Assembly (NCBI GenBank): GCA_023250995.1
Contig: JAHEZO010000003.1
Coordinates: 1-43,144 of the forward strand
Direction: 5' to 3'
Source: Flavobacteriales bacterium
GTDB taxonomy: Bacteria > Bacteroidota > Bacteroidia > Flavobacteriales_H > JAHEZO01
DNA length: 43,144 bases
The position numbers and the translations under genes were made by a program. The stretch's first letter is position 1. Every line of letters starts with the position of its first letter. The notes below the pieces were generated by a model that ran no database searches, was not told the DNA's origin, and worked only from the letters and a program-made list of their open reading frames with translations. Positions 606-31,424 of the stretch are shown one piece after another.

Positions 606-795
606 TTAAACCTGAAAGGTTCCCCAAACTCGCAGGCGATGCTGCAAACCTTTCAGGTTGGAACCTTAACTTAAACCCGAAAGGCTTCCCAAACTCGCAA
701 GCAATGCTGCAAACCTTTCAGGTTGGAACCTTAACTTAAACCCGAAAGGCTCCCCAAACTCGCAAGGGATGCTGCAAACCTTTCAGGTTGGAAAA
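606..795 (-). repeat. Three tandem copies of a 65-bp hairpin-forming repeat (AACCTGAAAGGTT...AACCTTTCAGGTT family)
   Basis: Units start at 606, 671 and 736, each beginning TTAAACC. In copy 1, AACCTGAAAGGTT (609-621) pairs perfectly with AACCTTTCAGGTT (647-659) over 13 bp around a 25-nt loop. The right arm plus flank GCTGCAAACCTTTCAGGTTGGA is identical in all three copies. The array abuts the stop codon of the PorP/SprF gene (796-798). Confidence 0.9.
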
Positions 796-1857
796 TTACT
801 CAGCCCGGGGCAAACCTTTAATTTTTATTTTATCCGTAGAAAAAATCCCGCTATACAATAAAGAAAACTCAATGCCTCCGTTATAGGTGCTTGCCGTTTT
901 CAATTTTGAAATATTCACATCATAAGAAATTCCCATTCTGATATTTCCATAATCGAAGCTTGTGGCGGCAATAATCGCATCACCCTTGCGGTAAAATGCA
1001 CCAAGATCCATGGTAACTTCATTGCGCCAATTGGTATAGCGGGAGGCGGTTTGCATTTTAATTTTGAAAAAGGCCCCAAGGAACAATTCCCTTTGCGCAC
1101 CCTGATTCATAAATAAAATTTTAGGAACAATGTACCGGTCGGGGAAGTTATCGTTATGCCTGAGTTTAATTTCGGTTTTTTGATGGATTACTAATTTTGG
1201 ATGCAAGGATTCTTTTTTGTTATTATTAAATGATTTATCGGGTTTATTGGCATGAAAAACTGCCAAGCCAGTAGAAAAATTTAATGCCTCGCTGTTTTGA
1301 AAATTCCAAAGGCCGCCAGCTGAAACATCAAAATAATTTTTTTTATCGGAGTAATTTAATTCTCTGGATGAAAGGGAGGGGTCAAAATTATTTCCATTGA
1401 ATTGGTTATCCCAGGTCAATTTTGAAAGGTTGATACTCTTTTGGGCATAACCACCCTGTATCCCTGCTGATAGGGTGTTGTGGTCGTTTATGATTTGAGT
1501 GGCCGCAAGAGACAAATTCACCTGGGTATTTGAAAGCTGTGATTTTCCGGCTTTATCATTAAAGGCAGATAATCCAACTCCCAGCCAGGTGTTTTTTCCC
1601 CTGTTTTTAAGAACATTCATATCATAGGCAAATGCTAAAGTTGAATAGGGAGCGGCCACACTGCTCCATTGATTTTTGTAATTGTTTGAAACGCGAAAAT
1701 TCAAATCCATCATCCCGGTGAGGGCGGGATTTAAAGTAAGGGGGGATGCATCAAACTGGGAAAAGTGAATATCCTGCGAAAAGGAATTTCTATCAATAAG
1801 CAGGCAATTGATTATAATTAAAATCAGAGACAAAAAACGAGTAAAAAATATTCTCAT
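796..1857 (-). CDS. PorP/SprF-family type IX secretion system outer-membrane protein
   Basis: 353 aa. A signal peptide is followed by FSQDIHFSQFDASPLTLNPALTG, which matches the characteristic opening motif of PorP/SprF-family proteins (FSQ-x-x-x-NP-x-x-x-NPA-x-x-G). The remainder has beta-barrel-like alternating composition. Confidence 0.8.
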   Translation of the reverse strand: MRIFFTRFLSLILIIINCLLIDRNSFSQDIHFSQFDASPLTLNPALTGMMDLNFRVSNNYKNQWSSVAAPYSTLAFAYDMNVLKNRGKNTWLGVGLSAFNDKAGKSQLSNTQVNLSLAATQIINDHNTLSAGIQGGYAQKSINLSKLTWDNQFNGNNFDPSLSSRELNYSDKKNYFDVSAGGLWNFQNSEALNFSTGLAVFHANKPDKSFNNNKKESLHPKLVIHQKTEIKLRHNDNFPDRYIVPKILFMNQGAQRELFLGAFFKIKMQTASRYTNWRNEVTMDLGAFYRKGDAIIAATSFDYGNIRMGISYDVNISKLKTASTYNGGIEFSLLYSGIFSTDKIKIKGLPRAE

Positions 1858-1922
1858 TTTGAATGATTTGAAATTATTATTGTCAAAGATAAAAAAATCA
1901 AATGAATGGCAATTTCTGCTAC

Positions 1923-2717
1923 TTATACTACTTTTGCTTTGCGTAAAATTTTCGAAAAAAGAAGGGGAAAAAATCTTTTTAAATATACTCCGCCTACCTC
2001 CCTAAAACCACCAATATAAACTTCTTCTTTTTCATTTTTAATGGCGGATAATATTTTTTTTGCACATAATTCCGGAGACAGTCCTTTATCTGTTGCATCA
2101 TCCATTTTATTCTGGGGAGAGCCATTTCCGGTGAGTGCGTTTATTGTAAGATGGGTTCTGACAAAACCGGGGCAGATCAGGGTAACCTTAATATTGTCAT
2201 CAAAATGTTCTGCTCTTAAAGAATCAAAAAATCCATGGAGTGCATGTTTGGTTGCGGCATAGGTGGAGCGAAAAGGGGAACCGTATTTTCCAGTTACACT
2301 TGTAACCACCACATAGTGTCCTTTTTTGTTTTGGATGAAGTAAGGGAGAAGAGATTTTGAAAGGGATATGGTACCAAGAAAATTGGTATCAACTAATTTT
2401 TTATCCACATTAAAATTTGTATCCTTTGCAAAGGCCCTTTGGGAAACTCCAGCATTGTTAATGAGAAAATCAATGGTTCCAAAAGTTTTCAATGCAAATG
2501 AAACTTTGGAAGGAATTTCATCGTGGTTTGCGAGATCGAGGGGCAATATAAGAAGATCGTTTTCGGGGAGAGAACAATTTTTTTTAACTCTTATAAGTTC
2601 ACTTTCTCTTCGGGCGGAAAGAATCAGTTTGGCGCCTTCTTTTGCAAATGCATAGGCCAGGGCTTCTCCCAGTCCGCCCGAAGCACCCGTTATCCAAACC
2701 GTTTTATTTTTGAACAT
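1923..2717 (-). CDS. Short-chain dehydrogenase/reductase (SDR) family oxidoreductase
   Basis: It carries TGASGGLGEALAYAF (TGxxxGxG cofactor site), NNAG, and YAATKHAL (YxxxK catalytic motif). I place the start at the ATG at 2715-2717 (MFKNKTVWITG). The ORF-track start at 2771 adds 18 codons that read through the upstream hairpin repeat. Confidence 0.85.
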   Translation of the reverse strand: MFKNKTVWITGASGGLGEALAYAFAKEGAKLILSARRESELIRVKKNCSLPENDLLILPLDLANHDEIPSKVSFALKTFGTIDFLINNAGVSQRAFAKDTNFNVDKKLVDTNFLGTISLSKSLLPYFIQNKKGHYVVVTSVTGKYGSPFRSTYAATKHALHGFFDSLRAEHFDDNIKVTLICPGFVRTHLTINALTGNGSPQNKMDDATDKGLSPELCAKKILSAIKNEKEEVYIGGFREVGGVYLKRFFPLLFSKILRKAKVV

Positions 2718-2744
2718 TAAGCAAGTAAAAGATTTTAATTTAAA

Positions 2745-2823
2745 ACTTAAACCTGACAGGTTCGGCAGCACGCAAATGCCATAGCTGCAAACCTTGCAGG
2801 TTGGGTGGCAAACCTTTCAGGTT
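2745..2823 (-). repeat. Dispersed copy (about 1.5 units) of the AACCTG-N-CAGGTT hairpin repeat family
   Basis: AACCTGACAGGTT (2750-2762), AACCTTGCAGGTT (2790-2802) and AACCTTTCAGGTT (2811-2823) are present with the same GCTGCAAACC flank seen at 606-795. The last arm touches the aldehyde dehydrogenase stop codon (2823-2825). Confidence 0.8.
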
Positions 2824-4193
2824 TAGGAGCGAAGATGCCAACCTTTAGGCTTTGCAAAAGCCCTTATTCCCAAATGAGAAAGCGTTGCTCCGATTCCTGA
2901 ATTTTTTCTTCCGCTCCAGGGTAAAAAGGGACTTACCCTATCGCAGCAATTCCAATAGGCTGTTCCGGTATTCATCCCGGCAAGAATTTTTTCCGCCCTG
3001 AATTTATCTTTTGAATAAACGGAGACCGTTAAACCGAACTCCGTATCCTGCATTAAAGCTGCAGCTTCATCGTCATTAATTACTTTTTGAATTCCGATTA
3101 CGGGTCCGAAAGTTTCTTCCTTCATTAAACGCATGGTGTGATCAACATTGGAAAAAACCGTTGGAGAAAATCCCCAGCCTTTTCCCGAAGAGGGAGACCG
3201 TTGACCGCCACACAATAAAACGGCCCCTTTTTTTAATGCATCTGAAACCAAATCTTCAAGAAAAATTAAATGTTCTTTTCGGGCAACGGGGCCAATCATA
3301 ACTCCATCCTCCATAGGATTTCCCACCTTCCATTTTTTTAATTCTTCAAGAAAACAACAAATGAATTCATCATAAACTTTTTGATGAACATAAATTCTTT
3401 TAACTGCACAACAACTTTGGCCATTATTGTAAAAAACCCCTTCAACAGCCGAGTTGGCCACATTTTTTATGCTTTCCACATCATCTGCCACATACAAGGG
3501 GTCGTTACCTCCGAGTTCCAACTGACAGGGGACCAGTTTGGGTGCAACTTTTTCGGCAATGTATTTTCCCGTTTTGAAAGAACCAGTGAAAAAATAACCA
3601 TCCAGAGGCAAGTCAAGCAATGCCTCACCTGCGTTTTTTCCTCCTGCAATTGCTTTAAAACAATTATCGGGGATGCCTGCTTTTAATAGGAGTTCTTCAA
3701 TTTTTAGCCCGGTTAAAGTAGCATACTCAGACGGTTTGTACAAAACAGAGTTACCGGCAATAAGAGCGGGAATAAAAACATTTACCCCCACCAGGTAAGG
3801 ATAATTCCATGCAGAAATATTTGCTATTATCCCTAGCGGTTCGTATGAAATTTTTTCTTTGGTGTTTCCCTCTAAAATCTGCCATTCATCCGAAAGATAT
3901 TTTTCGGAATTTTCGAGGAAAAAATTAATTCGGTATTGAGCGCCATTAATCTCGTTCAGCGATTGCCATAAAGGTTTCCCCATTTCGGAGGTAAGGATTT
4001 TAGCAAGCTCATCTTTATTTGTTCCAAGTAAATCAGAAAAAATCCGGATGCGGTTCAACCTCTCTGAAATCGGGATTTGTTTCCATGATAATTGTCCCTT
4101 TTTTAATTTTAAAAAAATCTGTTTAATAGACTCAGAAGAATATTCTGTTATTTCCTGAATTGTTTCTTCGGTGGCAGGATTGATTATTTTCAT
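2823..4193 (-). CDS. Aldehyde dehydrogenase family protein
   Basis: 456 aa with LELGGNDP (catalytic Glu region), NNGQSCCAVKR (catalytic Cys region) and EETFGPV. These are the classical ALDH superfamily motifs. Confidence 0.9.
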   Translation of the reverse strand: MKIINPATEETIQEITEYSSESIKQIFLKLKKGQLSWKQIPISERLNRIRIFSDLLGTNKDELAKILTSEMGKPLWQSLNEINGAQYRINFFLENSEKYLSDEWQILEGNTKEKISYEPLGIIANISAWNYPYLVGVNVFIPALIAGNSVLYKPSEYATLTGLKIEELLLKAGIPDNCFKAIAGGKNAGEALLDLPLDGYFFTGSFKTGKYIAEKVAPKLVPCQLELGGNDPLYVADDVESIKNVANSAVEGVFYNNGQSCCAVKRIYVHQKVYDEFICCFLEELKKWKVGNPMEDGVMIGPVARKEHLIFLEDLVSDALKKGAVLLCGGQRSPSSGKGWGFSPTVFSNVDHTMRLMKEETFGPVIGIQKVINDDEAAALMQDTEFGLTVSVYSKDKFRAEKILAGMNTGTAYWNCCDRVSPFLPWSGRKNSGIGATLSHLGIRAFAKPKGWHLRS

Positions 4194-7801: not shown

Positions 7802-7885
7802 AGATAAAAAGTGTAAGGGTTTAAGGGTTTATGAGTTATTAACTGGACTTACGAAAATGGTTTTATTAAAAATATTAAATAAAAA

Positions 7886-8076
7886 TTTCACGCAGAGCCG
7901 CAATGGTCGCAAAGTTTTAAGGCCGCAGATCAACCCCCACAGTAAAACTGTGGGGGACATTGCGTTCTTAAAAACGTAATTCGTATTTATTAAAATCAGC
8001 ATTAAAATTGATGAGAATTTTTAAATTTTCTTTTATTCAAATATTCCACTTGCGAACTTGGCGACTTTGCGTGAAA
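7886..8076. repeat. Imperfect ~30-bp inverted repeat (TTTCACGCAGAGCCGCAATGGTCGCAAAGT / reverse complement) enclosing ~130 bp with a GC hairpin; MITE-like
   Basis: The left arm lies within 7886-7918 and the right arm at 8047-8076, whose reverse complement is TTTCACGCAAAGTCGCCAAGTTCGCAAGTG. By eye about 24 of 29 positions match. The interior holds a 9-bp GC-rich hairpin, CCCCCACAG-TAAAA-CTGTGGGGG (7934-7956). Confidence 0.7.
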
Positions 8077-8282
8077 CTTTTAGTTTTTGCTTAACTTCAG
8101 TTATTAAGTTTAGGGCTTTTTGACGGATGTTGTAAAAAAAAATGTTTCAGTTGTCTCAAGCAATTTATTCTTCAAATTTCTGAATCTCCATTCTTTCTTT
8201 ATAAATTACAAACTTACGACTTATACCTTTTCTCATTATTAAACATGCTCTTACTTTTTTTATAAAAAGTAAGCAAAAAATC

Positions 8283-8400
8283 AAAAAATCTGATGAGCCC
8301 TGCGATGGCTGTTTTCACACGTCCAACGGCCTACAGGGCCACAGCCATCACATCTACCCCCAATGCTTCCGCACCAGATTTTTCAGAGAGCCCCCCGCAA
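8283..8400. other. GC-rich island with multiple complementary segments; candidate structured RNA or repeat-element core (strand undetermined)
   Basis: AAAAATCTG (8284-8292) is complementary to CAGATTTTT (8375-8383). GCCCTG (8297-8302) is complementary to CAGGGC (8334-8339). GATGGCTGT (8304-8312) is complementary to ACAGCCATC (8341-8349). The local G+C is clearly higher than the surrounding AT-rich spacer. Confidence 0.35.
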
Positions 8401-8631
8401 TTTGAGATGTAGAATGTTTTCCCTTTTTAAGATTTTTTTAAAATTTAATGATAAAAAATATATGTATTTTATTGGACTAAATTACATTGGGTTATGGTAT
8501 TAATAAAATCGGACATTCTGCGCAACATCGTTTAATAATAAACCTTTTAACCCCTAAACCCTAAACTTATAAACAAATTTACTGTTTACCATAATCCAAA
8601 GATTTGAAAATAAGTATTAGCAACCTCATAA

Positions 8632-10026
8632 TTATTTATTCGATTTCAAAATATTCATTTTTATCCCTCCCTGCGGCCGGAGGGTAATCAAGGGTTCGAG
8701 CAAGGGAACCGAATTTTGTGCCATGGTAAAATGAAAATGCTGAAGGATTGTTGCCACCACAAGCTGGGCCTCCATCATTGCAAAATTATTTCCGATGCAC
8801 AGGCGGGGTCCGCCTCCAAAAGGGAAATAAGAATATTTTTTGATTGAAGCAGCTCTTTCTGGTGAAAATCTTTCGGGTTCAAATTTATTGGGGTTTTCCC
8901 AATAATCGGGATGACGGTGAATAAGATAAGAAACCATTAGGACATTAATCCCCTTTGGAAGCAGATAGCCTCCCACCACATCATCTTCAAGGGGCCTCCT
9001 TCCCACAATCCATGCGGGGGGATAAAGCCTCAAAGTTTCTTCCACTACCATTTTAGTATATTTTAATTTTGGCAAATCTTCAAAGGATGGGGTTTTCCCA
9101 TTCAAAACGGTTTTTAATTCGTTTCTTAATTTTTCCTCCGCCTCCGGATTTTGTGAAAGGAGAAACCAGAGCCAGGAAAGGGCTATGGCCGTAGTTTCAT
9201 GGCCTGCAATAAAAATGGTCATTATTTCATCCCTGAGCTGCAAATCGCTCATTCTTTCTCCCGTTTCTTCATCTTGCGCCCCCATCAGCATTGAAAGCAA
9301 ATCGTTGTGCTTATCTGATTCATTTCTCCTTGAATCAATAATACCGTAAATCATTTTATCAAACTTTTTTGATTCGGAATTGAATTGCCGGTTTGCCGGA
9401 GTCGGAAACCATAAAGGAATCCGGACGGCCCGCTTAATCCGGTCCATGGCAAAATGATTTGAAACAGAAACGGCATTTCGGATTTCCTCCAGTTTGCCAC
9501 TCACATTTACACCAAAAAGCGCCTCGGCAACAATATCTAAGGTAACCTCATTCATCTCATCCGTAATGGTTATCACCCCTCCATAATTGTATTTATTCTT
9601 CCATTTCTGCACAAGCTTTTCGGCCGAAGCGGTCATTTGTTTTGTAAGTGCCTCCAATTTTTCGCGATGAAATGCGGGCTGGGCCAACCTCCGTTGTTGC
9701 CGCCAGAAATCTCCTTCGCTGGTAAGCAAACCGTTTCCTAAAAAAATTTTTAAAACTTCATAGCCAAAACTTTTAATATAGTTGCGGTTATTTTCCTGCA
9801 AAATATATTTTACATAATCAGGATTGGTTGTGAAACATAAAGAATGACTTATCACCTCTGTTCTGAAAATATCTCCATGCAGTTTTTGATTTTTTTCAAC
9901 AAAGCCGATAATGTCTTTTTTAACATCAAGGCTGTTTTTCATAAACCATCCTCCCGAAACTTTTGGAAGTGGTTTGGCTGTTTTGGTTTTGGCGGAAATG
10001 GTTTTGGATGAATTTTCAGTTAGCAT
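8632..10026 (-). CDS. Cytochrome P450
   Basis: 464 aa with IAGHETTA (I-helix), ETLRLYPP (ExxR) and FGGGPRLCIGNNFA (heme-thiolate loop FxxGxRxCxG). Confidence 0.95.
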   Translation of the reverse strand: MLTENSSKTISAKTKTAKPLPKVSGGWFMKNSLDVKKDIIGFVEKNQKLHGDIFRTEVISHSLCFTTNPDYVKYILQENNRNYIKSFGYEVLKIFLGNGLLTSEGDFWRQQRRLAQPAFHREKLEALTKQMTASAEKLVQKWKNKYNYGGVITITDEMNEVTLDIVAEALFGVNVSGKLEEIRNAVSVSNHFAMDRIKRAVRIPLWFPTPANRQFNSESKKFDKMIYGIIDSRRNESDKHNDLLSMLMGAQDEETGERMSDLQLRDEIMTIFIAGHETTAIALSWLWFLLSQNPEAEEKLRNELKTVLNGKTPSFEDLPKLKYTKMVVEETLRLYPPAWIVGRRPLEDDVVGGYLLPKGINVLMVSYLIHRHPDYWENPNKFEPERFSPERAASIKKYSYFPFGGGPRLCIGNNFAMMEAQLVVATILQHFHFTMAQNSVPLLEPLITLRPQGGIKMNILKSNK

Positions 10027-10084
10027 AATGATCTTTTTTCATTGGGAAATTATTTTGAAAGGAGATAAAGTTTTCCTTATCATG

Positions 10085-10092
10085 CAAACATA
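10085..10092 (-). promoter_or_regulatory. Candidate Bacteroidota -7 promoter box (TATGTTTG) upstream of the P450 gene
   Basis: The minus-strand sequence TATGTTTG matches TAnnTTTG exactly and lies about 59 nt upstream of the start codon at 10026. I saw no clear -33 TTTG. Confidence 0.3.
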
Positions 10093-10305
10093 AAGAAGTT
10101 CTGTGAAAAACCGGAAAAAGTTTCGGGCTATACCCCTTTAGAGCGTGTTTAAATTTATTTCCACTGTGGACTCGGGTGAAATTTTTTTGCTTTTCTCTCT
10201 GTAAAAATTTTTACCGGAGTGATTCGCAGCCGATGGGCAGAGTACCAGGGTTTAAATGCCGCATCATGAGAAAAAATAAACTTACTAAATTTACATCAAA
10301 AACGT

Positions 10306-11904
10306 ATGCCTGTCCGGGGACCCTTGGTTAAAAAATTAAAGCAAATTACATTGCCTTTTTTGTTTTTTTATTCAACCATTTTATTTTCCCAATCCGCTGG
10401 AGATTCTTTATTCAACACGTTAAAAGTTCACTCGGTGCAAATTAATTTTCAGCAATCAAATTACTGGACTTTGCTCACCGGTAATAAAGCTTTTGATGAT
10501 GCGAATGATTCCTCCACTTATATTCCTGCCCAAATAAATATTGACGGCACTATTCTGGATTCGGTAGGAATTCAGTTTAAGGGAAATTCTTCTTATTACA
10601 ATTATCCCGGAAATAAAAAACCTTTCACACTTTCGTTTGATCAATACGACACCCTTCAGAAATACGATGGATTAAAATCAGTAAACCTGAACAACCTTTA
10701 CCAGGATCCGTCCTTTATGCGCGAAAAACTATTTCTTGATTTTATGAATGAAAAAGGGCTCAATGCCCCGAGGGCCAATTTTGCAAGAGTTTTTATCAAT
10801 GGTACCTATTGGGGTTTATACTATCTGAGCGAAAGAGTGAATAAAACATTTTGCAAAAGCCGTTTTGGCAATAAAGACGGGAACTTATTTAAGGGGGATG
10901 GAACTGGTTCTGCCTGTGCCAATCTGGAATATCACGGAGTGATGTCGCCCTACTATAATTGCTATACACTTAAAACGAATACCAGCTCAAATGATTGGTC
11001 GGGTTTGGTTAACCTCACCTACCAAATTAATAACAGTCCCGATGGAAGTTTTAAAGATTCATTGGATGCTGTTTTAAATACCAATTCATTTATCGGTTCA
11101 TGGGCTGCATGCAATATGTTTGTTGATTTCGATTCTTATGCCTTCAGGTTTGTACATAATTACTATATATACCAAAACACCTCGACAAATAAATTTGAAT
11201 GGATAACATGGGATGTGAGTACTGCCTTTGGAATGGATGTACCCGGAACCGTTCCCTCCGTTGAATCGAAAAGCATTTTTTACATTGAACCACCCGAAAC
11301 TTACCGGCCCCTGGCTAACAGGATGTTGAACGACTCGTTTTATAAAAATCAATACCTGAATTTTATTTGCAGCTACCTTCAGGATTTTAACCCTGCGGTT
11401 TTGAACCCAAATATAGACAGCATTTATAATTTAATAAAAGCAGATGTTTATTCCGATTCTCTCAAAATGTTTTCCAACAGCAATTTCGACAACAATATTT
11501 CCTCCAACATAACCATAAATTCTCTTACTTATCCCGGATTAAAATCTTTTATTCAAAACCGGAGCGCTTCCATTCAAAACGAACTAAACTCCCTTGGAAT
11601 TAACTGCAGTTTATTCTCCTCCGCTGAAAACCCGGGAAATTCTGTAAATGAAATAAAAGCATTTCCAATTCCGTTTTCTTCCCGGTTAACGTTGGAATAT
11701 TTCCTTGAAAAATCCGAAAAAACATCCATCGTAATTTTTGATTATCTGGGAAGGGAATTATTAAAAACGGAAAGCAAACAGGAGGCCGAAGGATTAAAAA
11801 AGGTAATAATAAATACCGAAAACTTCCGTTTGGGCGGGATATATTTTTTAAAATTGCAAATTGGTCATGAAATAATTACAAAAAAATTGATTTGCCAAAA
11901 TTAA
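10306..11904 (+). CDS. CotH-like kinase family protein with a T9SS C-terminal sorting domain
   Basis: 532 aa with a signal peptide. CotH-like blocks are present (GIQFKGNSS, KKPFTLSFDQY, LKSVNLNNLYQDPSFMREKL, ARVFINGTYWGLYYLSERV). The C terminus reads AFPIPFSSRLTLEY...DYLGRELL...GGIYFLKLQ...KKLICQN, the Por-secretion-tail pattern. Confidence 0.75.
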   Translation: MPVRGPLVKKLKQITLPFLFFYSTILFSQSAGDSLFNTLKVHSVQINFQQSNYWTLLTGNKAFDDANDSSTYIPAQINIDGTILDSVGIQFKGNSSYYNYPGNKKPFTLSFDQYDTLQKYDGLKSVNLNNLYQDPSFMREKLFLDFMNEKGLNAPRANFARVFINGTYWGLYYLSERVNKTFCKSRFGNKDGNLFKGDGTGSACANLEYHGVMSPYYNCYTLKTNTSSNDWSGLVNLTYQINNSPDGSFKDSLDAVLNTNSFIGSWAACNMFVDFDSYAFRFVHNYYIYQNTSTNKFEWITWDVSTAFGMDVPGTVPSVESKSIFYIEPPETYRPLANRMLNDSFYKNQYLNFICSYLQDFNPAVLNPNIDSIYNLIKADVYSDSLKMFSNSNFDNNISSNITINSLTYPGLKSFIQNRSASIQNELNSLGINCSLFSSAENPGNSVNEIKAFPIPFSSRLTLEYFLEKSEKTSIVIFDYLGRELLKTESKQEAEGLKKVIINTENFRLGGIYFLKLQIGHEIITKKLICQN

Positions 11905-13550: not shown

Positions 13551-13753
13551 ACCAAAAATTTTAAGGGAGCCAAAGTTAAAAAGAATTAGACCAGTAAGTA
13601 AAATCTGATGTGCCCGGTGGATGGGGTAATTCTCACCTATGCCTCTTCCTCTGAAAAGCTTTTTGAAACGGATTAGGATTACTGATTAAGTTTTTATCAA
13701 AAAGTGTAAATCCGCTCAACAAAATTTTTTTAATACCCCTGACAAAAATCATA

Positions 13754-13783
13754 TTTGTTTACTAAAAAAATAGAATACATTTG
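13754..13783 (+). promoter_or_regulatory. Candidate Bacteroidota promoter (-33 TTTG, -7 TACATTTG) for the 13843 gene
   Basis: TTTG (13754-13757) and TACATTTG (13776-13783, an exact TAnnTTTG match) are separated by 18 nt. The -7 box lies about 60 nt upstream of the ATG at 13843. Confidence 0.4.
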
Positions 13784-13842
13784 CATCGTTATTTAGAATT
13801 AATCTAAATAATAATTTTAACCACTTAACTTAGATTTTAACA

Positions 13843-16244: not shown

Positions 16245-16432
16245 GTTTAGGATTTAGGAGTTTAGGGGTTTAAGGGTTGAAGAGTTAAAGGGTTGAAGAG
16301 TTTAAGGGTTGAAGAGTTTAAGGGTTTAAGAGTTTAAGAGTTTAAGGGTTTAAGAGTTTAAGGGTTGAAGAGTTTAAGAGTTTAAGAGTTTAAGAGTTTA
16401 AAAGTTGAAGAGTTTAAAAGTTTAATTCTTAA
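16245..16432. repeat. Tandem octamer array (GAGTTTAA / GGGTTTAA / GGGTTGAA variants, about 22 units)
   Basis: The sequence reads directly as ...GAGTTTAAGGGTTGAAGAGTTTAAGGGTTTAAGAGTTTAAGAGTTTAAGGGTTTAAGAGTTTAAGGGTTGAAGAGTTTAAGAGTTTAAGAGTTTAAGAGTTTAAAAGTTGAAGAGTTTAAAAGTTTAA. It lies 50-235 bp upstream of the collagen-like gene start. Confidence 0.9.
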
Positions 16433-16555
16433 AGTTCATAATAATAGATTCAATTTCTTCCGTTGTTTTAAATAGCCTTACCGGTTAAGTTTGGAAATAT
16501 TAAATATATATGTTTCAAAAAATAGTTAACATTTTTTATCTAACCACAAAAGCTC

Positions 16556-16632
16556 AAAACTATAAACCCATAAACCATAAACCATAAACCCATAAACTAA
16601 TAAACTGATAAACTTTTTAACTCATAAACTAA
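16556..16632. repeat. C/A-rich octamer-like array (CATAAACC / CATAAACT variants), complementary in sense to the 16245-16432 array
   Basis: The sequence is CTATAAACCCATAAACCATAAACCATAAACCCATAAACTAATAAACTGATAAAC...CTCATAAACTA. Its reverse complement (GGTTTATG-type) mirrors the G/T-rich array across a ~120-bp AT-rich centre. It overlaps the ilvA stop codon. Confidence 0.75.
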
Positions 16633-17882: not shown

Positions 17883-18041
17883 TTTACTACTATATAAATA
17901 AAGTTTTTAAATTGAGTTTTGGATAAGGTTTAAAATATCATTCTAAAAATAAAAAGGTTTACTTTTTCATCTTGCCACAAAAACACAAAAGCTGTGTTTG
18001 CACTTTCTTTTTATGCAAAACTCAGGCTATTAATAACCATC

Positions 18042-19088: not shown

Positions 19089-19156
19089 AAAATAAATTAA
19101 TTTGTAAATGATTTAATTAGCTAATTAGTTAACAAGTTAATTACTTTCAAAACTTT

Positions 19157-19753: not shown

Positions 19754-20049
19754 AGAGACGCCCTTGTAGGGCGTCTTTACGGTTTTATCGTGCCTTCCTG
19801 TTCGATGATATCCTCCTATAGGACGCCCTTGTAGGGCGCCCCTACGGTTTTATCGTGCCTTCCTTTGCGAGGATATCCTCCTATAGGACGCCCTTGTAGG
19901 GCGTCCCTACGGACCTATCAGATCTCATGGTGGGTGCCCTTCCTTTCATGCCTGGAGACGCCCTTGTAGGGCGTTTCCATGGGACTATCAGATCTCACGG
20001 TGGTTGCCCCTCCTTTCATACCTGGAGACGCCCTTGTAGGGCGTCTTTA
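19754..20049. repeat. Array of five GACGCCCTTGTAGGGCGTC palindromes at 65-70-bp spacing (REP/BIME-like), between ilvB and ilvN
   Basis: The palindromes start at 19757, 19822, 19887, 19957 and 20027. The two 65-bp units are near-identical to each other (...TACGGTTTTATCGTGCCTTCCT...GATATCCTCCTATAG). The two 70-bp units are also near-identical to each other (...CTATCAGATCTCA-GGTGG-TGCCC-TCCTTTCAT-CCTGGA). Confidence 0.9.
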
Positions 20050-23480: not shown

Positions 23481-26400
23481 TTAAAGTTTAATATATTTTC
23501 TTTTAAATACGCAGTCGGAGCCGGCAGATATTGAAAGCAAAAAAATTCCAGGAGGCAAAGGTGGTAATTCAAGAGTTAATACTGTATCTGAATTCCGCAC
23601 ATTTTTTTCAACCGCCCCCCTGCCGGTAATATCATGCAAAACTATACTTAAATTTTTATGCCCTGCCGGGGTAAAAATTGCAAATTGGGAAAAATCCGAA
23701 TTCGGAAATGCAATTATGCCCGATTCAATGGAGTAACTTACCGATATAGGATTAAATTGTTGGAAACTGCCATTGACATCCACCTGAATTAATTTAAAAT
23801 AATTTATTCCGGCCAGCGGATTTTCGTCAATAAAGCGATAATAATTAATAGTGGAAGAATTCCCTGAGGCACTCATGGAGTCGATGGTAAAGTATGTTTT
23901 TAAATCGGCTGACTTAAGCAGAAGAAAATAATCCGAATTAATTTCGGATGCCGTGGACCAACTGATAAAAATTTTGTTTTCTTTTAAAATAGCGTTAAAT
24001 GAAATCAGGTCAACCTGCAAAGGAGCATTTGATTCATATGCACCCCGCCATGGCCCATTGCATGATCCACATGGAATGGCCACAGTACCCGAAGCCCTGC
24101 TCACTCCATCAATATCCACCGTTATTCCGGTTGTGTTTATTCCATTAGATTTTACATCTGCAGTGGTGGCCGAAGGAACATTTCCGGCAGGGGCAATAGT
24201 AATGGTTCCGTTTATATCATTTGCTCCTTTTGGAATGGCCTGCCAGCCCGCAAAAGAATAATCCTGTGCTGCTCCTGCCGCTCCCCAATGCACGCATTTG
24301 TTTACATTGTCGGAAACTTCGAGATAATTGTAATCCCAGGTTCCTACCGGACTGGATTTTACCTGCTGGAAAGCATAATTAAAGCCGGAACCTCCGGTTC
24401 TTTTATTCTGAAAAATATTATTTTTTACATTGAAAGCAGATCCATCGCTATTATTTAAATAGTATGAACTGCTGGTGGTTGACCCTCCGGATGTTCCTGC
24501 CATTTTAATCGTGTTGTGGTATAATTCGGGAGCCCCGTTGGTAGCTCCTGATCCCCAATAAGAATAAATTCCATACATTGAAACCGAATTGGTATTGGTA
24601 GAATTATCGAGTACCATGGCATTATTGTGGTATTTAAAATTATTCGAGATGGAAGCCGAATTATTATATTGAAAAACTCCTGCAATTATTCCCGAACCTC
24701 CGGTTGAAAGGTTTGAAATTGAATAGATGTGATTTTGTTTAAGATTAAAGCTTGCCCCCGCATCCCCGAAAAAAATTCCCGATATCAAATTATTTATTGC
24801 GGTATTATCGGTAAGAGATAAATCATTGATGGTATTGCCGGTAATGGAATTATCAGAGGATGTCCCATTGGTACATAAAAAATTCAGGGCTGAAACTGAG
24901 GGGGCGGTAGTAGAAGCATATTTTGAAGCTGAAGTAATGTTTGCTATGGAATTATTTGTAATGGCACAATATTGAGGATTTCCGGAGGAAGGGCCAAAAT
25001 AAATTCCGTAAAATTTATTGCTTGTGCCGGTATTTGTAAGGTTAAATTGCCTGATATTATTGCTGCTGAAAGTATATGTATTTGCACCGGCAGGTGTATA
25101 GGAATCGGTGAAATAAATTCCAAATGTTGAGCAATTGGCTGCGATACTAATATTGTTTGAAGAGCTTCCCCCGATTAAATTTGAATTTATTGTTGCAGGT
25201 CCAACTCTCGAATCAACATAAATAAAATAAATTGAGGTGGCTCCGCTAATAGTAATGTTGCTGATAGAGTTTCCCGATATATCAAAATTCCCGGCCCGGT
25301 TATAAACCGTATTACCATTGGAAATTAATTTAAAAGAGGAAGTGGCCGTTGAACTTATATTTGAAAAAACATTTCCTGTGCAAACCAAAAGGCTGTACTG
25401 AACGCCCCCGTTGCTTACCGTTTGATTTAAGCCCAGTTCATTGAGGATTCCATAAATCGGAACTGCAGAAACGGTGGAAATTTTAAAGTTTTGAAAAGTA
25501 TTGTTAGTGATGGTTTGGGTAATGGAAGAAACATTTCTGTCGGAGGTGGTGCTGTAGTCAGTTATCCATTCTTCCTTCATTCCGGCAATAATATCCATAT
25601 TGTCGGCTGCTCCATTTCCAAAAGTATTGTTATCAATAGTGGCATCCACACTGCATAAATTTTCAACCAGGCAAATTTTTCCGGAGGTGTTAGATCCGGA
25701 TACTTTAACCCCCCCCATGGTATTGTACCCCACGTTAACGGCACCGGAAGTACCTGCAATTTTTATTAATGAAAAGGATCCCTGCGACCCTGAATTGGCT
25801 GAATTATCCGCAATGCTTATTCCATCGGAAGATGACCAAACTCCGGATGTTGAGCCAATGGTATTAGGACTTGATTGAGTACCAATGGTAATGGAAGCTG
25901 CTCCGGAGGTATTAATAGCGGTAAACAAGGGGACAGAAGTGCTTGTTGAAGTAAAGGAAATATCGTTGATAATGTTTCCGGTAATCGTAATTGAAGTGCT
26001 TGCCCCTGCATCAATTCCGCTAAAAGTAGAAGCTCCGGTTTGAGTGAGGTTGGTGAAACTATTGTCGGTAATACTAACGGTTGTAGCAGACCCCGAATGA
26101 ATGAAAACCCCGTAAAATTTTGTGGATGTAGTAATGTTTTGAATGGTATTGGTATTTATATCTGCCGTAGTGCCTCTGAAATAAACACCATAAAAAGGAT
26201 CTGCCGTACTTGTCCCCGAACAGGTAATATCTTTTATCTGATTTAAAGAAGCTGAGGGTAAAGTGGCTGTTGAGGATGAGCCATAATCAATTTTTATTGG
26301 CTGGAAGCTGGCACCTGAAGAAGAGCTGGTTTGGTTAATTTGCTGAATTACATTGTTATTTACTGTAAACGTCCCCTGGTATCCGAGGTAAATTCCCTGA

Positions 26401-28199
26401 TGATAGTTTGCAGAGGCAAGAGAAAGATTATTTGCAGGAGAGGATGCTCCTATGGTATTGCCGTTGCAGGTCAAAGTGCCCGAATTATCAAGTTCTATAA
26501 AACTAACCCAGCATTTGGTGGTGGCTGATTGGGTAATGTTTGAAATGGTATTTGAGCTTACAACCAAGGTGCCGCTGCCTGTGGATGATTTTAGGAAACG
26601 CCAGTTTACATTAGAGGCAGATCCTGCGGTAGAAATAGAAATGTCGTTTATAACATTATCTGTTACCGTACATGATTTCCCTGTAGTAGAATTAAAATAA
26701 ATCAGGTTGCCGCTGTTATTATCATTTACAGCCGCATTAAAGTTAATTCCCTGCAAAGTATTATTTGTAATTGTACAGGTGGTTGGTGAGGTTGTTGCCT
26801 GCGTGGATATTCCATAAAAAACATTTTTTATACCATAAACAATATTATTTGATGTTGTGTTTCCAATGGTGTTGTGGTCGATGGTTACCGAGGAATAATA
26901 ATTTGCCGTGGCAACAGTACCGATAAAATATATGGAGGCGGGGGTGGAAGTGCTGGTTATTGAAATGGCCCCGAAAGTATTATAGGCTACGGAAACGGTT
27001 TGAGTGGTAATGGAGGTGGAAGTGTATATTCCCTGAAAAGGAGAAAGAGACGTGTTATTTGCAGCAACAATAATGCTGGCCGTTGCCCCGCTCGTTTCGC
27101 CAAACTGGTTTCCGTTTCCGGAAGAACCGATAATATAATTGCAGCTTCCAAATAAGCTGAAACCGGAAAAGGCGGCTTCTCCCGCAGTGGAATTGGTGGT
27201 GGTTACGCTAATATTTTTAATGGTATTTCCCGAAATGGTTATTGTTCCTCCGGAGGTGCTTGTTCCTGAGGTAACCACCGAAAATGTGTAAGCAGATGTA
27301 TTAAGGGTAAACGGGGTTGCTCCAGCGCACAAGGCATCCTGACCTCCGAAATAATTTCCTGTAATGGTATAACCTCCTCCGCTGGTAAGGTAAACCATGT
27401 AAACTTTTGCTGCAGGGGTAAAGGCGGTGGATTGATAAAAGCTATTATTTGTTATTGAAAAAGAATTGGTATTAGCTGCGCAATAAATCCCCACCATTTT
27501 GAAATCAAATATCCTGCAATTAGTTATGGTATTTGCGCTGTTGGATTTTGAAGCCGTCCCATTTGATAAAATGGCATTCCCCACGAGCTTGGTGTTATCA
27601 TCCGTTCCAATATAACAATTTGAAATCTCGTTATTGTTATTTCCGGAGGAACCGGTGGTGGTCGAAAATATTATTGCTCCGTCAGAAGTTGAACCTGCAT
27701 TGGAGTTATAGGAAAATATCTTAGAATATTTAACGATGTTTGAGGTGGCATCGTTTCGGAATAATACCGTGCCGGCACCGCTGGAAGTGTTGGTATTTTT
27801 AATTACCAGGTCCTCGGTGGTTCCGCTGGCGTTCACTCTGCCATCGAGGGTAACATTATCTGCTCCGTTAAAATCTATTAAAGGTGAAGCTACACTGCCC
27901 GAAAGAGTATAGCCGGTTGCGGTTGGATAAATGGTTAATGAAGTCCAGGAACTTGTACCGGGCTGGTTTAAAACAGCCGATGCATTATCGGTAATGCTGG
28001 TTGTAATGGTAATAACAATGTTGTTCCCTCCCTGCGCCCCCTGGGCGTTAATGGCGGCAAAAGCTAATCTGAGATTTGCATAAGTTCCGTCCGCGCCTGT
28101 TGACCCGGCAACTGTGGCTTGTGAAAAAGATTTCAAAAACATTACAGAAAACAGAGTCATCAAAAAAATAATTATCAGATAGTCTTTTTTTAAAAACAT
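23481..28199 (-). CDS. Large secreted Ser/Thr/Asn/Gly-rich parallel-beta-helix repeat protein with a T9SS C-terminal sorting domain
   Basis: 1,572 aa with signal peptide [27 protein letters not shown], followed by hundreds of residues of NxI/TNN beta-helix-like repeats. The pre-tail module reads [28 protein letters not shown]. The tail reads AFPNS...HDITGRGAV...GIFLLSIS...KRKYIKL. Confidence 0.85.
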
Positions 28200-29095: not shown

Positions 29096-29129
29096 AAAAA
29101 AAAACCATCCTTTTTTTAAGAATGGTTTT
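29096..29129 (-). terminator. Rho-independent terminator (attenuator) between the leader ORF and ilvE
   Basis: The minus-strand RNA reads AAAAACCAUUC-UUAAAAAAA-GGAUGGUUUUU followed by more U. The stem is 9-11 bp with one G-U pair. It ends 16 nt before the ilvE ATG. Confidence 0.7.
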
Positions 29130-29149
29130 TGAAATATAAAAAAGTATTT

Positions 29150-29227
29150 TTTATACCTGCACCATCCATTTCCTGCGGCTAATTACTGCAAGGATAATTT
29201 GAATGATTATGGCACTGAATATTTTCA
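29150..29227 (-). CDS. ilv operon leader peptide (25 codons, Ile/Val/Leu-rich)
   Basis: The minus-strand ORF runs from the ATG at 29225-29227 to the TAA at 29150-29152 and encodes MKIFSAIIIQIILAVISRRKWMVQV. That is 7 Ile, 3 Val and 1 Leu in 25 codons, with III and II runs. The terminator follows about 20 nt downstream. Confidence 0.65.
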
Positions 29228-29467
29228 TGTTGCTTTTGATTTGAAGTGCGAATGTACAATTAGTTTTAGAATTGGCTTTGGGGGTGATTTAAAAATTGGT
29301 TTCTTGGGCTTGCCCTCCGCGTTTTTTTTGCATCCAGGTTTGAAAGTTTAGCCTCTTTGCCCCATCGTAAAAAAAAAGAAATGCCACTAAAACACTAAAC
29401 CACAAAATCCCACTAAATTAATTTTCCTAAATACATTTCATCTTTTTCCCACTTAATCATACAAAAG

Positions 29468-31312
29468 CTATTTTACCTTTCGTTCCATTCCATTATCATC
29501 ATTTCTCATTGGAGAGGAAACATTTACCGGTCCGGGTTCAAAACGGATATCGGCAAATGGCGAAAGACGTTTTCCCACCATGGCATCCGCCACATTGCAG
29601 GTAATACTCCATTGAAAGGAGGTGTTTGAAGTTCCCCCATCCAGTTCAACCACATCAAATCCATTTTTTGTTTTGTTGGTAACATACACCCCCTTGCAAT
29701 TCCCTTCCAACTGAACAAAAACCCTCAACGGATGTTTTTCGCTGATCATTACATTTTTTGCCAGTATGGGATCAATTTCAATGTGAGCTTTGCCATTGTT
29801 AAGTTTCCCTTCGCCATAATCCTGAAAATAAAATTCAGGAGTTTCGGGGGCATGAAGTGTTGCTGGATTTCCATTTAAATCGGGAACTGAAGTGGAAGTC
29901 GTTCCAACATTATTTTGCCAAATTTTATAATGAGTTCCCCCCACAGAGAATGCTTCAACCAGCGTAGTGCTGAAAGCGCCTCCCGCTCCATCACCTGCAA
30001 CAAAATATCCACCTGCTGTTTGTCCGCTTGTGGCCGCTTGATAACCCGATAAGCCATATTCATTTCCTATAAAGGCACCACCGCAACCGGAGGCAGGGGC
30101 AGAACCGTTGGCATTGCTGGATTTTCCAACTACACCATAGGAAGAAGTAGCGAAAATGGCTTTGCCATAAACCCCATAAGCACCGCTATTTGGAGCATAC
30201 CCATAAACACCCTGAAGGGTCCCGAAAAACGAACCTCCTGCTCCCCCGGCCACATTGGTATAGCTGCTCACATTATTTCCAATGCCAATTATTCCTGTTC
30301 CTGTAGTATTCAGGTTTGAACCATAAACTCCATATCCTGCCGATTGCTGGGTGGCTCCATAAAGTCCGATGCCCGCACCGGCACCGGAAGCTGCGGTATT
30401 TTGCCCTGTTAACCCCACACCGGCACTGTTACTATTGGAAATTACAGCCAAAGATGAAGCATTGCTCCCTAACCCATGAAGGGGATAGGACGGTGATGCG
30501 GTACCAAAGCCAATATTTCCGGTGGTTTGTTTCACTCTTAACCGCTCAATAGAATTAGTTCCGATTACAAAATCATTTGCTGCTGTTGCACCAATCCAGT
30601 TTTCGCTTCCCCCAATGGTTGAAGTGCCATAGGTTGCGGGAGTGGCAGGGTTTGTAAGTGTTGCATTCCCATTTAATCCCCAGGCACTTCCTCCTCCTCC
30701 TGACCCTGTTGGCCCTGTAACTCCGGTTGCTCCTGCAGTTCCTGTGGGGCCGGTTGTTCCAGCTCCCGTTGGGCCGGTGGCGCCTGTCCCGGTTGGGCCG
30801 GTGTTACCCGCCACACCTGTTGGGCCCGTGGGGCCGGTACTTCCTGTTGCCCCGGTTACTCCACCGCCTCCACCACCGGATGGGCCGGTAGGCCCCTGTG
30901 CCCCGGTTGGTCCTGTTGAACCATTGGAGCCTGTTGGACCTGCAATTCCGGTACCGGTGGGACCAGTGGCACCAATAGTTCCCGTGGGGCCCATTGGCCC
31001 GGTTGGGCCTTGAGAACCGCCTCCTCCTGAGCTAATGGATTTCCAAAAAGTTCCATCAAAATAGTAAAATACATTATCTAAAGTTTGAAAAATAAGCAGG
31101 CCTGTGGCCGGAGTTCCGGGGGCATTGTTTACAGTAACTGTATCTGTTCTTGGAATCAACACTCCTTTATCCGTTGATTTTAATTCAAGCAAAGCACTTT
31201 GATCGGGAGTAAGGGTTCCCACCCCAACATTCTTTGTTTGTGATTTTAAATCCTTGAAATTCAGAATTACCGAAAAGGCAATTAGGCCAAAAGCAAGAAT
31301 TGGTTTTTTCAT
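29468..31312 (-). CDS. Collagen-like / tail-fibre-like Gly-rich surface protein
   Basis: 614 aa. The signal peptide and N-domain [16 protein letters not shown]...[23 protein letters not shown] are paralogous to the protein at 15037-16197. Interrupted Gly-X-Y run spans roughly 30683-31018. An internal [24 protein letters not shown] motif is followed by a Gly/Tyr-rich region (GYGVYG, GAYGVYG, SYGVVG). There is no Por-type tail. Confidence 0.8.
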
Positions 31313-31370
31313 AAATGGGGATGTGTTATGTTTAACTAAATTATTGACCGAAGACGGAAGCTGGGAGCTG

Positions 31371-31424
31371 GAAGACGGAAGACCGAAGCTTGAAGTCTTT
31401 TTCCGTCTTCGGTCTTCCGTCTTC
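31371..31424. repeat. Perfect 18-bp-stem hairpin of low-complexity sequence (GAAGACGGAAGACCGAAG / CTTCGGTCTTCCGTCTTC) with a partial third copy
   Basis: Positions 31371-31388 are exactly complementary to 31407-31424, with an 18-nt loop. A partial direct copy, GACCGAAGACGGAAGC, lies at 31347-31362. The element sits between the giant-gene stop (31499) and the collagen-like gene start (31312). Confidence 0.85.

Follow-up and report, generated by a model that had tools for sequence, protein, structure and literature searches.

The intergenic repeats of this window (the whole 43,144-nt stretch of DNA analysed, from an uncultured groundwater Bacteroidota organism) are of two kinds. In b, c and e, which lie in co-directional gaps, tandem 7-9-nt words make up the arms of long inverted repeats. 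In a and d a 65-70-nt unit containing a short self-complementary word has been amplified in tandem at one locus each, without dispersal. The periodic-arm build of b, c and e is widespread among the Bacteroidota, where it occurs between cistrons and at the 3' ends of genes. Because the three families share the build of gene-enclosing hairpins, and b also their words, they point away from classical REPs and towards selfish or RNA-processing elements of an undescribed class. We favour, with some reserve, reading them as gene-less hairpin elements resembling the intervening sequences (IVS) of 23S rRNA, whose double-stranded RNA stems may be processed or may stabilise the mRNA.

We placed 25 genes in the window, and its intergenic DNA amounts to 3498 nt (8.1%). 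All nine segments that a sequence-only reading had assigned to five hairpin-repeat families were recovered at their places and fold far better than shuffled sequences. They total 1172 nt, 34% of the intergenic DNA, which bears out the density and diversity described there, and their REP-like placement at gene 3' ends and between cistrons was also confirmed. The segments are intergenic overall, but not strictly so, as a2 and the right arm of c2 enter a stop codon by 1-4 nt; the bounds of b had to be corrected to 7877-8085 and e was extended to 31433. Except for 17883-18041 and 29228-29467, each of the six co-directional gaps longer than 100 nt contains an element. Neither of the divergent gaps (10027-10305 and 13551-13842, about 280-290 nt) holds one. 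A canonical intrinsic terminator is found at 29098-29135. As had been stated, the window contains no transposase, integrase or Y1 (RAYT) domain among the 24 ORFs examined. The metatranscriptome of the same sample has zero coverage of the window. The features are as follows.

606-795, minus strand: family a1, a 65-nt unit repeated three times in tandem, flanked by the PorP/SprF stop (796) and the ATG of the next gene (570)
2745-2825, minus strand: family a2, one copy of the unit, containing three AACCTNNNAGGTT words
7811-7843: c1 left arm, GTGTAAGGGTTTAAGGGTTTATGAG, ending 10 nt short of the Fe-ADH start codon
7877-8085: family b, gene-less hairpin with arms 7877-7912 and 8050-8085
8535-8574: c1 right arm, complement of GTTTATAAGTTTAGGGTTTAGGGGTTAAAAGG, 58 nt past the P450 stop
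16245-16432: c2 left arm, 22.8 copies of GTTTAAGR, ending 48 nt before the ATG of a collagen-like gene
16433-16552: c2 centre, about 120 nt, with TAnnTTTG promoter-like boxes on both strands
16553-16632: c2 right arm, on the transcribed strand GTTTATGG-type 7-8-nt words beginning at the ilvA stop codon
19754-20049, minus strand: family d, five palindromes GACGCCCTTGTAGGGCGTC at spacings of 65 or 70 nt, separated by linkers of two types, between ilvB and ilvN
31346-31433: family e, hairpin of 7-nt purine words (GAAGACG, GAAGACC)

Tandem repeats were called with Tandem Repeats Finder, inverted repeats were searched separately, and the transcribed (minus) strand was folded against 100-200 dinucleotide shuffles. 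The folding z-scores are -4.1 for a1, -2.35 (weak) for a2, -7.7 for b, -4.15 for c2, -9.3 for d and -6.7 for e. Sense and antisense folding give an inconsistent strand signal, a1 being better on sense and c2 on antisense; for a1 the minus strand folds 20 kcal/mol better than the plus strand, via G-U pairs. Tandem Repeats Finder reports 606-793 in family a (period 65, 2.9 copies, 93% matches), 16245-16425 (period 8, 22.8 copies), 16553-16630, 7814-7831 and 8548-8566 in c, 19757-19912 (period 65) and 19887-20045 (period 70) in d, and 31346-31432 (period 7) in e. The inverted repeats pair 2748-2767 with 2806-2825 in a2, the 36-nt arms of b (81% complementary), arms of 22-51 nt in c2, and 27 nt at 85% complementarity in e, where a perfect 18-bp core (31371-31388 with 31407-31424) extends to 27-31 bp. 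A common build of low-complexity arms facing their complements, as proposed for all families, does unite b, c and e.

In each a1 unit a AACCTGAAAGGTT-type and a AACCTTTCAGGTT-type word pair to form a stem of about 13 bp. The a2 unit is flanked by the aldehyde dehydrogenase stop (2823-2825, which it overlaps) and the SDR ATG (2718), and relatives have a different sequence at this junction. The d palindrome folds into an 8-bp stem capped by a loop of 4 nt. No extra copies of a or d occur in the source metagenome (run X1), and we therefore regard both as local tandem amplifications; for d, neither viral contigs nor any of the other loci fetched gave a match. Both families form intercistronic stem-loops as well. 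A reading of these as RNase III substrates was rejected, the stems (13 and 8 bp) being too short.

Spread of the motifs beyond the window was found for b, c and e, which have further diverged copies on other source-metagenome contigs of similar depth, but not for a and d, each present at one locus only. In run X1 the depth of b reaches 209 over a baseline of 7, and that of e is 30-56 versus 5.5, the contigs involved differing in their flanks and bearing related purine words. Family e lies between the gene of a 3868-aa T9SS protein and the next gene. The c2 left arm, a G-free C/A-rich tract on the transcribed strand, has a depth of 20-45 versus 7.5, on other contigs, and the c2 centre is single copy (baseline depth) apart from an AT-rich stretch. 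The 12-mer GTTTATGAGTTA is common to the c1 left arm and the c2 right arm. Family c had been described as octamers and their complements; the octamers are present, but the right-hand arms are GTTTATGG-type minus-strand words only about 71-86% complementary to the GTTTAAGR arms.

The b arms are built of words of about 8-9 nt (TTTCACGC AGAGCCGC AATGGTCGC AAAG) around a 137-nt centre with its own 10-bp hairpin. They belong to a very large word family, TTTCACGCA[A/G]AG ... CT[C/T]TGCGTGAAA, found at at least 120 metagenome loci where fewer than one is expected by chance, and the terminal words also occur in Chitinophaga niastensis. In this class the arms consist of NNGCAAAG or NCGCAGAG words, around centres that vary freely; by position, 34 loci are tandem, 14 convergent and 4 divergent. 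The 12-nt word TTTCACGCA[A/G]AG is retained across hosts of 32-70% GC. A target-site duplication is absent in 110 of 117 b elements, and pairing continues past the supposed ends; fixed ends are lacking.

The copies are not fixed across relatives. At the orthologous junctions of genus-level relatives (L082-L085 and L202) the words of the window are absent, from which we conclude that the elements turn over fast; the periodic-arm hairpins come and go between close relatives. The gap from PorP to the next gene is 225 nt here versus 33-58 nt in relatives with 79-81% PorP identity, and the gap from ilvA to the collagen-like gene is 431 nt versus 17 nt in L202 (82% IlvA identity). After the stop codons, relatives carry other words (GTAGATT, GGCAGTT, GAGATGT). 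As the motifs are not fixed, ancient conserved sites are excluded, but proliferating REPs are not borne out either.

Across 80 Bacteroidota species (1.4 Mb) we counted 26 periodic-arm inverted repeats, compared with 1 after dinucleotide shuffling. By position, 25 such repeats are co-directional, 6 convergent and 0 divergent, with 7.6 divergent expected, and a T-tract is present in 4 of 41. Eight Flavobacterium species or MAGs have GTTTCAA-type hairpins between ilvB and ilvN; this junction is also the site of family d in the window.

Some periodic-arm hairpins enclose small genes. A gene for a GxxExxY PD-(D/E)XK nuclease of about 125 aa (PF13366 / TIGR04256, with invariant D...ExK residues) lies inside or beside the arms 14 times among the at least 120 b-class loci. 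These 14 genes fall in 714 kb of b loci, versus none in 2.5 Mb of other loci; the b loci were picked by b words, so the association could partly reflect host taxa, but the adjacency argues against this. Words of b stand on both sides of 10 of the 14 genes, compared with 21 of 2070 other ORFs. In eight GxxExxY cases an inverted repeat with 21-46 matching bases spans the gene, four of them from an independent viral-contig sample with unrelated words; inverted repeats also span some ordinary genes. The arm words co-vary with the GxxExxY subfamily, b-type words accompanying some subfamilies and unrelated words others. Four-helix-bundle genes ('23S rRNA IVS', PF05635 / TIGR02436) lie within GAGATNT / ATCTCAN arms, in 7-nt-word hairpins of one close relative (L085) and three other organisms (L335, L345, L348), and this gene is found at one conserved place, fadB-thiolase, in four organisms. 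The periodic-arm copies of the window are all gene-less, and its gaps contain no remnant of a GxxExxY or four-helix-bundle gene. Families c and e are linked to the gene casings only via the build and one relative, the words not being shared. The shared mechanism suggested by the sequence-only reading is plausible, as the build common to b, c and e encloses both kinds of gene elsewhere.

We propose that the periodic-arm elements would be co-transcribed with their neighbours and that stems of 18-35 bp would fold, as in rRNA intervening sequences. Such stems may be cut by RNase III or may block exonucleases, uncoupling the neighbouring cistrons. Gene-less copies could be derivatives of gene-bearing elements, or their targets; in the b class the GxxExxY nuclease is the candidate for the activity that mobilises them. 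The arms probably grow and drift through replication slippage, which would be tolerated because a repeat-built stem pairs in shifted registers.

A less likely, though still credible, explanation is that these are host regulatory hairpins arising in place without mobility, the stem being selected for processing, mRNA stability or translational coupling. Slippage would supply the repeated words, and the nuclease and four-helix-bundle genes would be passengers settling in or using the hairpins. This agrees with the recurrence of hairpins with different words at ilvB-ilvN in many genera, with the four-helix-bundle gene fixed at fadB-thiolase, with 5' arms that often begin 0-10 nt past the stop codon, with the missing target duplications of b and with the single-copy centre of c2. 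However, a 12-nt b word kept over such a range of host GC is hard to square with independent local origin, the arm words follow the nuclease subfamily, and the 431 versus 17 nt gap in close relatives resembles gain or loss of a unit. It is improbable that the repeats are neutral by-products of slippage and template switching, with no function and no mobilising agent. Low-complexity sequence, fast turnover, absence in relatives and the purely local a and d would be expected in that case, but not the avoidance of divergent gaps (both empty in the window), the 26-fold enrichment over shuffles, the recurrence at one junction, or arm pairing that is kept while the words change.

We regard as very unlikely that REP-like or MITE-like elements are spread in trans by a transposase (RAYT or IS enzyme) encoded elsewhere in the genome. 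The position between co-directional and convergent genes, as for REPs (PMC3733652), and the multiple copies of b, c and e in the source metagenome fit this, but nearly all b elements lack a target duplication and overrun their supposed ends, centres are not conserved, unpaired GTAG or CGTC tags are missing from every family, no Y1 transposase is encoded in the window, and the gene adjoining b elements is a PD-(D/E)XK nuclease and not a transposase. With a and d undispersed in addition, REP-like membership of all five families, as originally proposed, is not supported, nor is membership among MITEs. Finally, the c arrays might act on DNA, as invertible-promoter repeats or as regulator-binding arrays for the collagen-like surface protein gene, and the arms do flank a centre with promoter-like boxes on both strands upstream of that gene. 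This is highly improbable: the arms are imperfectly complementary, the run X1 contigs have no strand-changing joints, the window has no recombinase, and these words also border another, unrelated gap (c1).

The preferred IVS-like reading of b, c and e can be compared with several known systems. Intrinsic (Rho-independent) terminators are also stem-loops at gene 3' ends, but T-tracts are rare among periodic-arm repeats and present in none of the window's elements, several of which lie within operons, e.g. ilvB-ilvN. The ends of MITEs are fixed, and these elements have target-site duplications and a conserved IS-related core; in Neisseria, RNase III is reported to act on the transcript stems of the Correia / NEMIS elements. 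The elements here resemble Correia / NEMIS in being gene-less, 100-200 nt long, with inverted ends, beside genes and with long transcript stems. Correia / NEMIS elements are listed as MITEs (PMC3733652); unlike MITEs, the b class has no fixed ends, target-site duplications or conserved core. REPs are 20-40 bp long, bear a GTAG or CGTC tag that is unpaired, and occur in near-identical copies numbering tens to thousands (PMC3733652). As in the REP/BIME of E. coli and Pseudomonas (PMC3733652), we find clustered hairpins in gaps of co-directional or convergent gene pairs, presumably transcribed and mRNA-stabilising, and the d hairpin (stem 8 bp, loop 4 nt) has the size of CGTC-1 REPs. In contrast to REPs, the b, c and e arms have 18-50 nt of periodic words, d has GTAG in its loop and a paired CGTC, a and d are single-locus, and there is no RAYT in the window.

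[quoted passage not shown] Unlike IVS, located in helix 25 or 45 of 23S rRNA, the present elements lie between protein-coding genes, have arms of tandem 7-9-nt words, and are of a build that also encases a second, unrelated gene family (GxxExxY nucleases). The likeness to the IVS of Leptospira and Coxiella (PMC4990558) lies in terminal inverted repeats that form a long stem, a small four-helix-bundle gene in the loop of some copies with other copies gene-less, a sporadic distribution regarded as selfish, and the same protein family (PF05635 / TIGR02436) inside the periodic-arm hairpins of L085, L335, L345 and L348.

The window, 43 kb with about 40% G+C, carries nearly every gene on the - strand. 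According to Pfam, a PorP/SprF protein and two proteins with a type IX secretion sorting domain place it in the Bacteroidota, and it contains an ilv operon (ilvD, ilvB, ilvN, ilvC, ilvA). One public run holds this sequence, the groundwater metagenome X1. The closest match to IlvB among the species-representative genomes listed has only 70% identity, and genus-level relatives are known solely as short metagenome contigs (PorP identity 73-84%, IlvA identity 82%). Two very large ORFs of 1572 aa and 3868 aa lie at 23481-28199 and 31499-43105; the former has no Pfam match, and the sole match of the latter is a C-terminal type IX secretion sorting domain. One X1 contig omits 111 nt (15625-15737) inside the collagen-like gene (15037-16197), which is either a length variant of the Gly-X-Y repeat region or an assembly collapse.

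The sequence-only reading listed five families of intergenic repeats in nine segments, whose positions, as corrected here and with the centre of c2 added, are (forward-strand coordinates):

606-795: family a, tandem array a1
2745-2825: family a, single unit a2
7811-7843 and 8535-8574: family c, the two arms of c1
7877-8085: family b, inverted repeat with periodic arms
16245-16432, 16433-16552 and 16553-16632: family c, left arm, centre and right arm of c2
19754-20049: family d, tandem array
31346-31433: family e, inverted repeat with periodic arms

These repeats are real. All nine segments were recovered by Tandem Repeats Finder and a repeat finder. Folding of the transcribed strand, scored against dinucleotide shuffles, gave z-scores of -4.1 (a1), -2.35 (a2), -7.7 (b), -4.15 (c2), -9.3 (d) and -6.7 (e). 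With 25 genes placed, 8.1% of the window is intergenic, and the nine segments make up 34% of this DNA. The description of the repeats as strictly intergenic holds for nearly all of their sequence, the overlap being just 1-4 nt of a stop codon at a2 and at the right arm of c2. The elements are confined to co-directional gaps, and both divergent promoter gaps (~280-290 nt each) are empty. As the earlier reading had stated, the window holds no transposase, integrase or RAYT-like gene: Pfam finds no transposase, integrase or Y1 domain among its 24 ORFs. Rfam scans, run on the entire window (E up to 1) and on 8090-8640 (E up to 10), gave nothing beyond chance microRNA-like matches on e. No tRNA, tmRNA or rRNA is found in the window.

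Bacteroidetes promoter boxes were considered as an explanation of the repeats. TAnnTTTG boxes are enriched in the gaps, with 9 of 40 inside the intergenic 8% of the window, but they account for ordinary promoters instead (PorP, P450, dxr, 13843), and the explanation was rejected. Within c2, the single-copy centre contains a full TTG-N-TAnnTTTG promoter-like site at 16463-16493 (+), antisense into ilvA, and the inner edge of the right arm has a TAnnTTTG box at 16555-16562 (-) directed at the collagen-like gene; as promoters these boxes are only suggestive. At 29098-29227 a canonical two-way terminator hairpin (AAAAAAAACCATCC...GAATGGTTTTT) lies 3' of a 25-codon hydrophobic ORF (29150-29227, - strand), so the organism uses ordinary terminators too.

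The five families fall into two kinds. In a and d, a unit of 65-70 nt that carries a short self-complementary word (AACCTGAAAGGTT in a, GACGCCCTTGTAGGGCGTC in d) is repeated in tandem, and the stems measure 13 bp and 8 bp. In b, c and e, tandem 7-9-nt words make up the arms of a long inverted repeat, and these arms are 33-36 nt long in b, 22-51 nt in c2 and 18-31 nt in e. To compare copy numbers, X1 contigs were placed on each element at 80% likeness. The depth of a and d stays at the baseline, without extra copies, whereas b reaches 209 against a baseline of 7, c 20-60 and e 30-56. In X1, the one metagenome run that holds the organism, b, c and e have 5- to 30-fold depth at 80-95% likeness, and their copies lie on contigs with different flanks and similar depth. 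The loose ends of e-like copies consist of other purine-rich words, so the copies have a common style more than a common sequence. A copy-number variant of d, suspected from a contig joint, was rejected, as the Logan contig matches the window exactly. In viral contigs the d palindrome has no matches, and the short word of b has 116 chance matches, none of them paired. For a and d, only a general scheme fits, in which intercistronic stem-loops were amplified in situ.

Two further stretches of the window were noticed. Positions 8240-8450, located after b and before the right arm of c1, have an X1 depth of 70-128 against a baseline of 6-7, and therefore represent another multi-copy element; it opens with a terminator-like hairpin (8250-8273), is not matched by any Rfam family and does not resemble GxxExxY or four-helix-bundle genes. 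The 68-nt ilvN-ilvC gap consists mostly of TTAATTAG-type 8-nt words (19097-19143, 5.9 copies, 66% matches), a sixth short-period intergenic array that was missing from the earlier list.

If the motifs were ancient regulatory sites, they should be fixed across relatives. This is not the case, as the elements are missing at the orthologous junctions. The gap from PorP to the next gene is 225 nt in the window and 33-58 nt in three relatives (L082, L083, L085), the gap from ilvA to the collagen-like gene is 431 nt against 17 nt in a fourth (L202), and the gap between aldehyde dehydrogenase and SDR has a different sequence in the relatives. Other short words directly follow stop codons there (GTAGATT, GGCAGTT, GAGATGT), and L085 contains a full c-like arrangement made out of GAGATGT words. 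The five word sets are absent from 1.4 Mb of loci from 80 other Bacteroidota species, except for one b-like element in Chitinophaga niastensis.

The periodic-arm build itself is widespread in Bacteroidota. A purpose-written inverted-repeat finder detected 26 periodic-arm repeats in the loci of the 80 species (1.4 Mb) and one after shuffling, and in its first run 17 of 27 repeats had a period of 7. With a laxer setting, co-directional gaps contained 25 repeats and convergent gaps 6; divergent gaps contained none, against an expectation of 7.6. The ilvB-ilvN junction, the site of family d in the window, is occupied by GTTTCAA-, GTTTAAA- or GTTTCAC-type hairpins in eight Flavobacterium species or MAGs:

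L046, L055, L065, L066, L070, L074, L077 and L079, about 11690-11800 in each locus: heptamer hairpin at ilvB-ilvN

Within each of these species the words change in concert and the pairing is kept. Draconibacterium and other genomes have C-free word arrays at this junction, and in many other species the gap is 1-16 nt. The structure therefore recurs at the same kind of place and the sequence drifts.

Family b belongs to a large word class. Scanning JGI metagenomes for TTTCACGCARAG followed after 145-175 nt by CTYTGCGTGAAA gave at least 120 loci, with less than one expected by chance. The arms are NNGCAAAG or NCGCAGAG words, often nested or tandem, and the complementarity often runs on past the terminal word, TTTCACGC. 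Another 130 b words, where about 10 are expected, occur in these loci outside the chosen element. The elements are located after genes, 34 in tandem, 14 in convergent and 4 in divergent gaps. Their host contigs form two G+C groups. Hosts at 40-50% have type IX secretion and SusC-like genes. Those at 55-70% have flagellar genes and DUF3738 and are therefore probably another phylum; together with CarboxypepD_reg, these genes suggest hosts outside the Bacteroidota, perhaps Acidobacteriota. In the literature searched, we found no description of the b words as a repeat, and the words of the families returned primers or nothing.

The element of C. niastensis (L006:389-498) is a 110-nt b-class hairpin that takes up the greater part of a ~170-nt divergent gap. 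The right arm of this hairpin opens with TAACTTTG, a perfect Bacteroidetes -7 box, so judging from this motif some b-class copies may carry promoter signals. On another contig with b elements (L239:7495-8000), a nuoK gene lies between GTAGAGACAAGGCATTGCCTTGTCTCTAC-type palindromes; these form a REP-like family headed by GTAG, which is separate from the periodic-arm class.

The periodic-arm build is physically linked to two small-gene families, the GxxExxY nucleases and the four-helix-bundle proteins known from 23S rRNA intervening sequences (IVS). Nine small ORFs in the b loci, 125-142 aa long, turned out to be flanked by b words to the left and right, and eight of them belong to PF13366 (PDDEXK_3); two of these eight were scanned against NCBIfam and both are TIGR04256, GxxExxY. 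There are 14 GxxExxY genes in 714 kb of b loci; the window, 1.4 Mb of Bacteroidota loci and 1.06 Mb of viral contigs contain none. Of these 14, ten are flanked left and right by b words at distances of up to ~150 nt; among other ORFs the same is true of 21 in 2070. The clearest examples have the gene in the hairpin loop; in locus L314 one arm ends 4 nt ahead of its ATG and the other begins 2 nt past its stop. The D...ExK residues are invariant in the GxxExxY proteins, and solved structures gave no sequence match to them. An independent sample of GxxExxY genes from viral contigs has the same casing made of quite different words, for instance a perfect 46-nt repeat of TTTTACTTAAAA-type words, or CACAAAG / CTTTGTG words.

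In L085, a 24-nt repeat spans a four-helix-bundle gene (TIGR02436 / PF05635) that is located within a GAGATGT hairpin. Three other sample sets (L335, L345 and L348) have homologues of this gene at the same fadB-thiolase junction, where 25-36-nt arms of GAGATNT / ATCTCAN words enclose them. A single four-helix-bundle query returned 3824 homologues. The other small ORFs spanned by inverted repeats are of mixed families, so the link is specific to these two. In the window gaps, profile searches of all six translated frames turned up no trace of either gene. We consider this link the most useful result; no description of it was found in the literature searched, where one paper mentions GxxExxY in passing.

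Beyond the structures, places and turnover that we observe, the elements would be co-transcribed with neighbouring genes, and the transcripts would fold into 18-35 bp stems. By analogy, these stems may act like the stem of the 23S rRNA intervening sequence, which is cut by RNase III (PMC4990558), or alternatively as exonuclease barriers. The arms would lengthen and drift through slippage, and gene-less copies may be derivatives of gene-bearing elements or their targets. A same-sample metatranscriptome, the sole RNA run, has no reads over the window, and comparing the G-U pairs of the two strands gave no consistent answer.

In a homing-type reading, which we regard as a long shot, a GxxExxY gene and its palindrome would form a selfish element. 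The GxxExxY proteins would be small structure-specific PD-(D/E)XK nucleases recognising the periodic-arm cruciform or hairpin; the element would turn gene-less hairpins such as b gene-bearing, or leave gene-less scars, and the same vehicle would carry the four-helix-bundle genes as another passenger. If true, an undescribed class of mobile element, acting via DNA secondary structure and not via terminal sequence and a transposase, has left the many gene-less periodic-arm hairpins of Bacteroidota, and of some high-GC soil bacteria, as its footprint.

The earlier finding is real and more interesting than a mere list of repeats. Bacteroidota genomes are full of unannotated intergenic stem-loops and, to our knowledge, thousands of their GxxExxY and four-helix-bundle genes have no known role. 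The hairpin-gene link offers one testable explanation for both the stem-loops and the orphan genes, an IVS-like hairpin vehicle living in operons. In this phylum, which lacks Shine-Dalgarno-led initiation, the hairpins likely set the relative expression of adjacent cistrons. The hairpins also break short-read assemblies, X1 contigs ending at a, b and d, and terminator and REP finders would mis-score them.

The sequence-only reading proposed five REP-like families, possibly spread by one mechanism. This is only partly right. The REP-like position stands; a and d are undispersed. A REP is an imperfect palindrome of 20-40 bp, one end of which bears an unpaired tag, GTAG or CGTC, and a genome has tens to thousands of near-identical, dispersed copies (PMC3733652). 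The window elements differ in size and tag, and their copy pattern in X1 does not fit well: b, c and e, with arms of 18-50 nt of periodic words, have no tag, and in d GTAG is in the loop and CGTC is base-paired, so REP/RAYT membership is not supported on structure. The small genes flanked by b words also encode PD-(D/E)XK nucleases, not the Y1 (IS200/IS605-type) transposase of RAYT. A MITE was rejected for the b class, as fixed ends and target-site duplications are absent (110 of 117 elements lack any terminal direct repeat of at least 2 nt) and the centres of 120 elements are mutually unrelated; a conserved MITE core was rejected also for c2, whose centre is single copy in X1.

Intrinsic terminators were rejected, since a T-run follows none of the window elements and only 4 of 41 periodic-arm repeats in the Bacteroidota loci (laxer setting); searching the literature for Bacteroidetes terminators gave nothing relevant. 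Read as CRISPR arrays, a and d would have spacers that are themselves repeated (unit identity 92-93% in a and d type 1, 87% in d type 2), and the window has no cas gene, so this was rejected. As to an invertible promoter at c, the X1 contigs, which drop rare variants, have no strand-changing joints, and the window has no recombinase.

The nearest known thing is the rRNA intervening sequence with its four-helix-bundle ORF. Its inverted-repeat stem, some 20 bp or longer and enclosing a variable centre, is found in b, c2 and e, and not in a (13 bp) or d (8 bp). The four-helix-bundle ORF lies in the loop in L085, L335, L345 and L348, whereas the window copies are gene-less and the b word class encloses GxxExxY instead. 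The site of an IVS in the 23S rRNA gene is helix 25 or 45, and every copy described here is between protein-coding genes; the elements differ further in their periodic arms and in a casing that is also used by a nuclease family.
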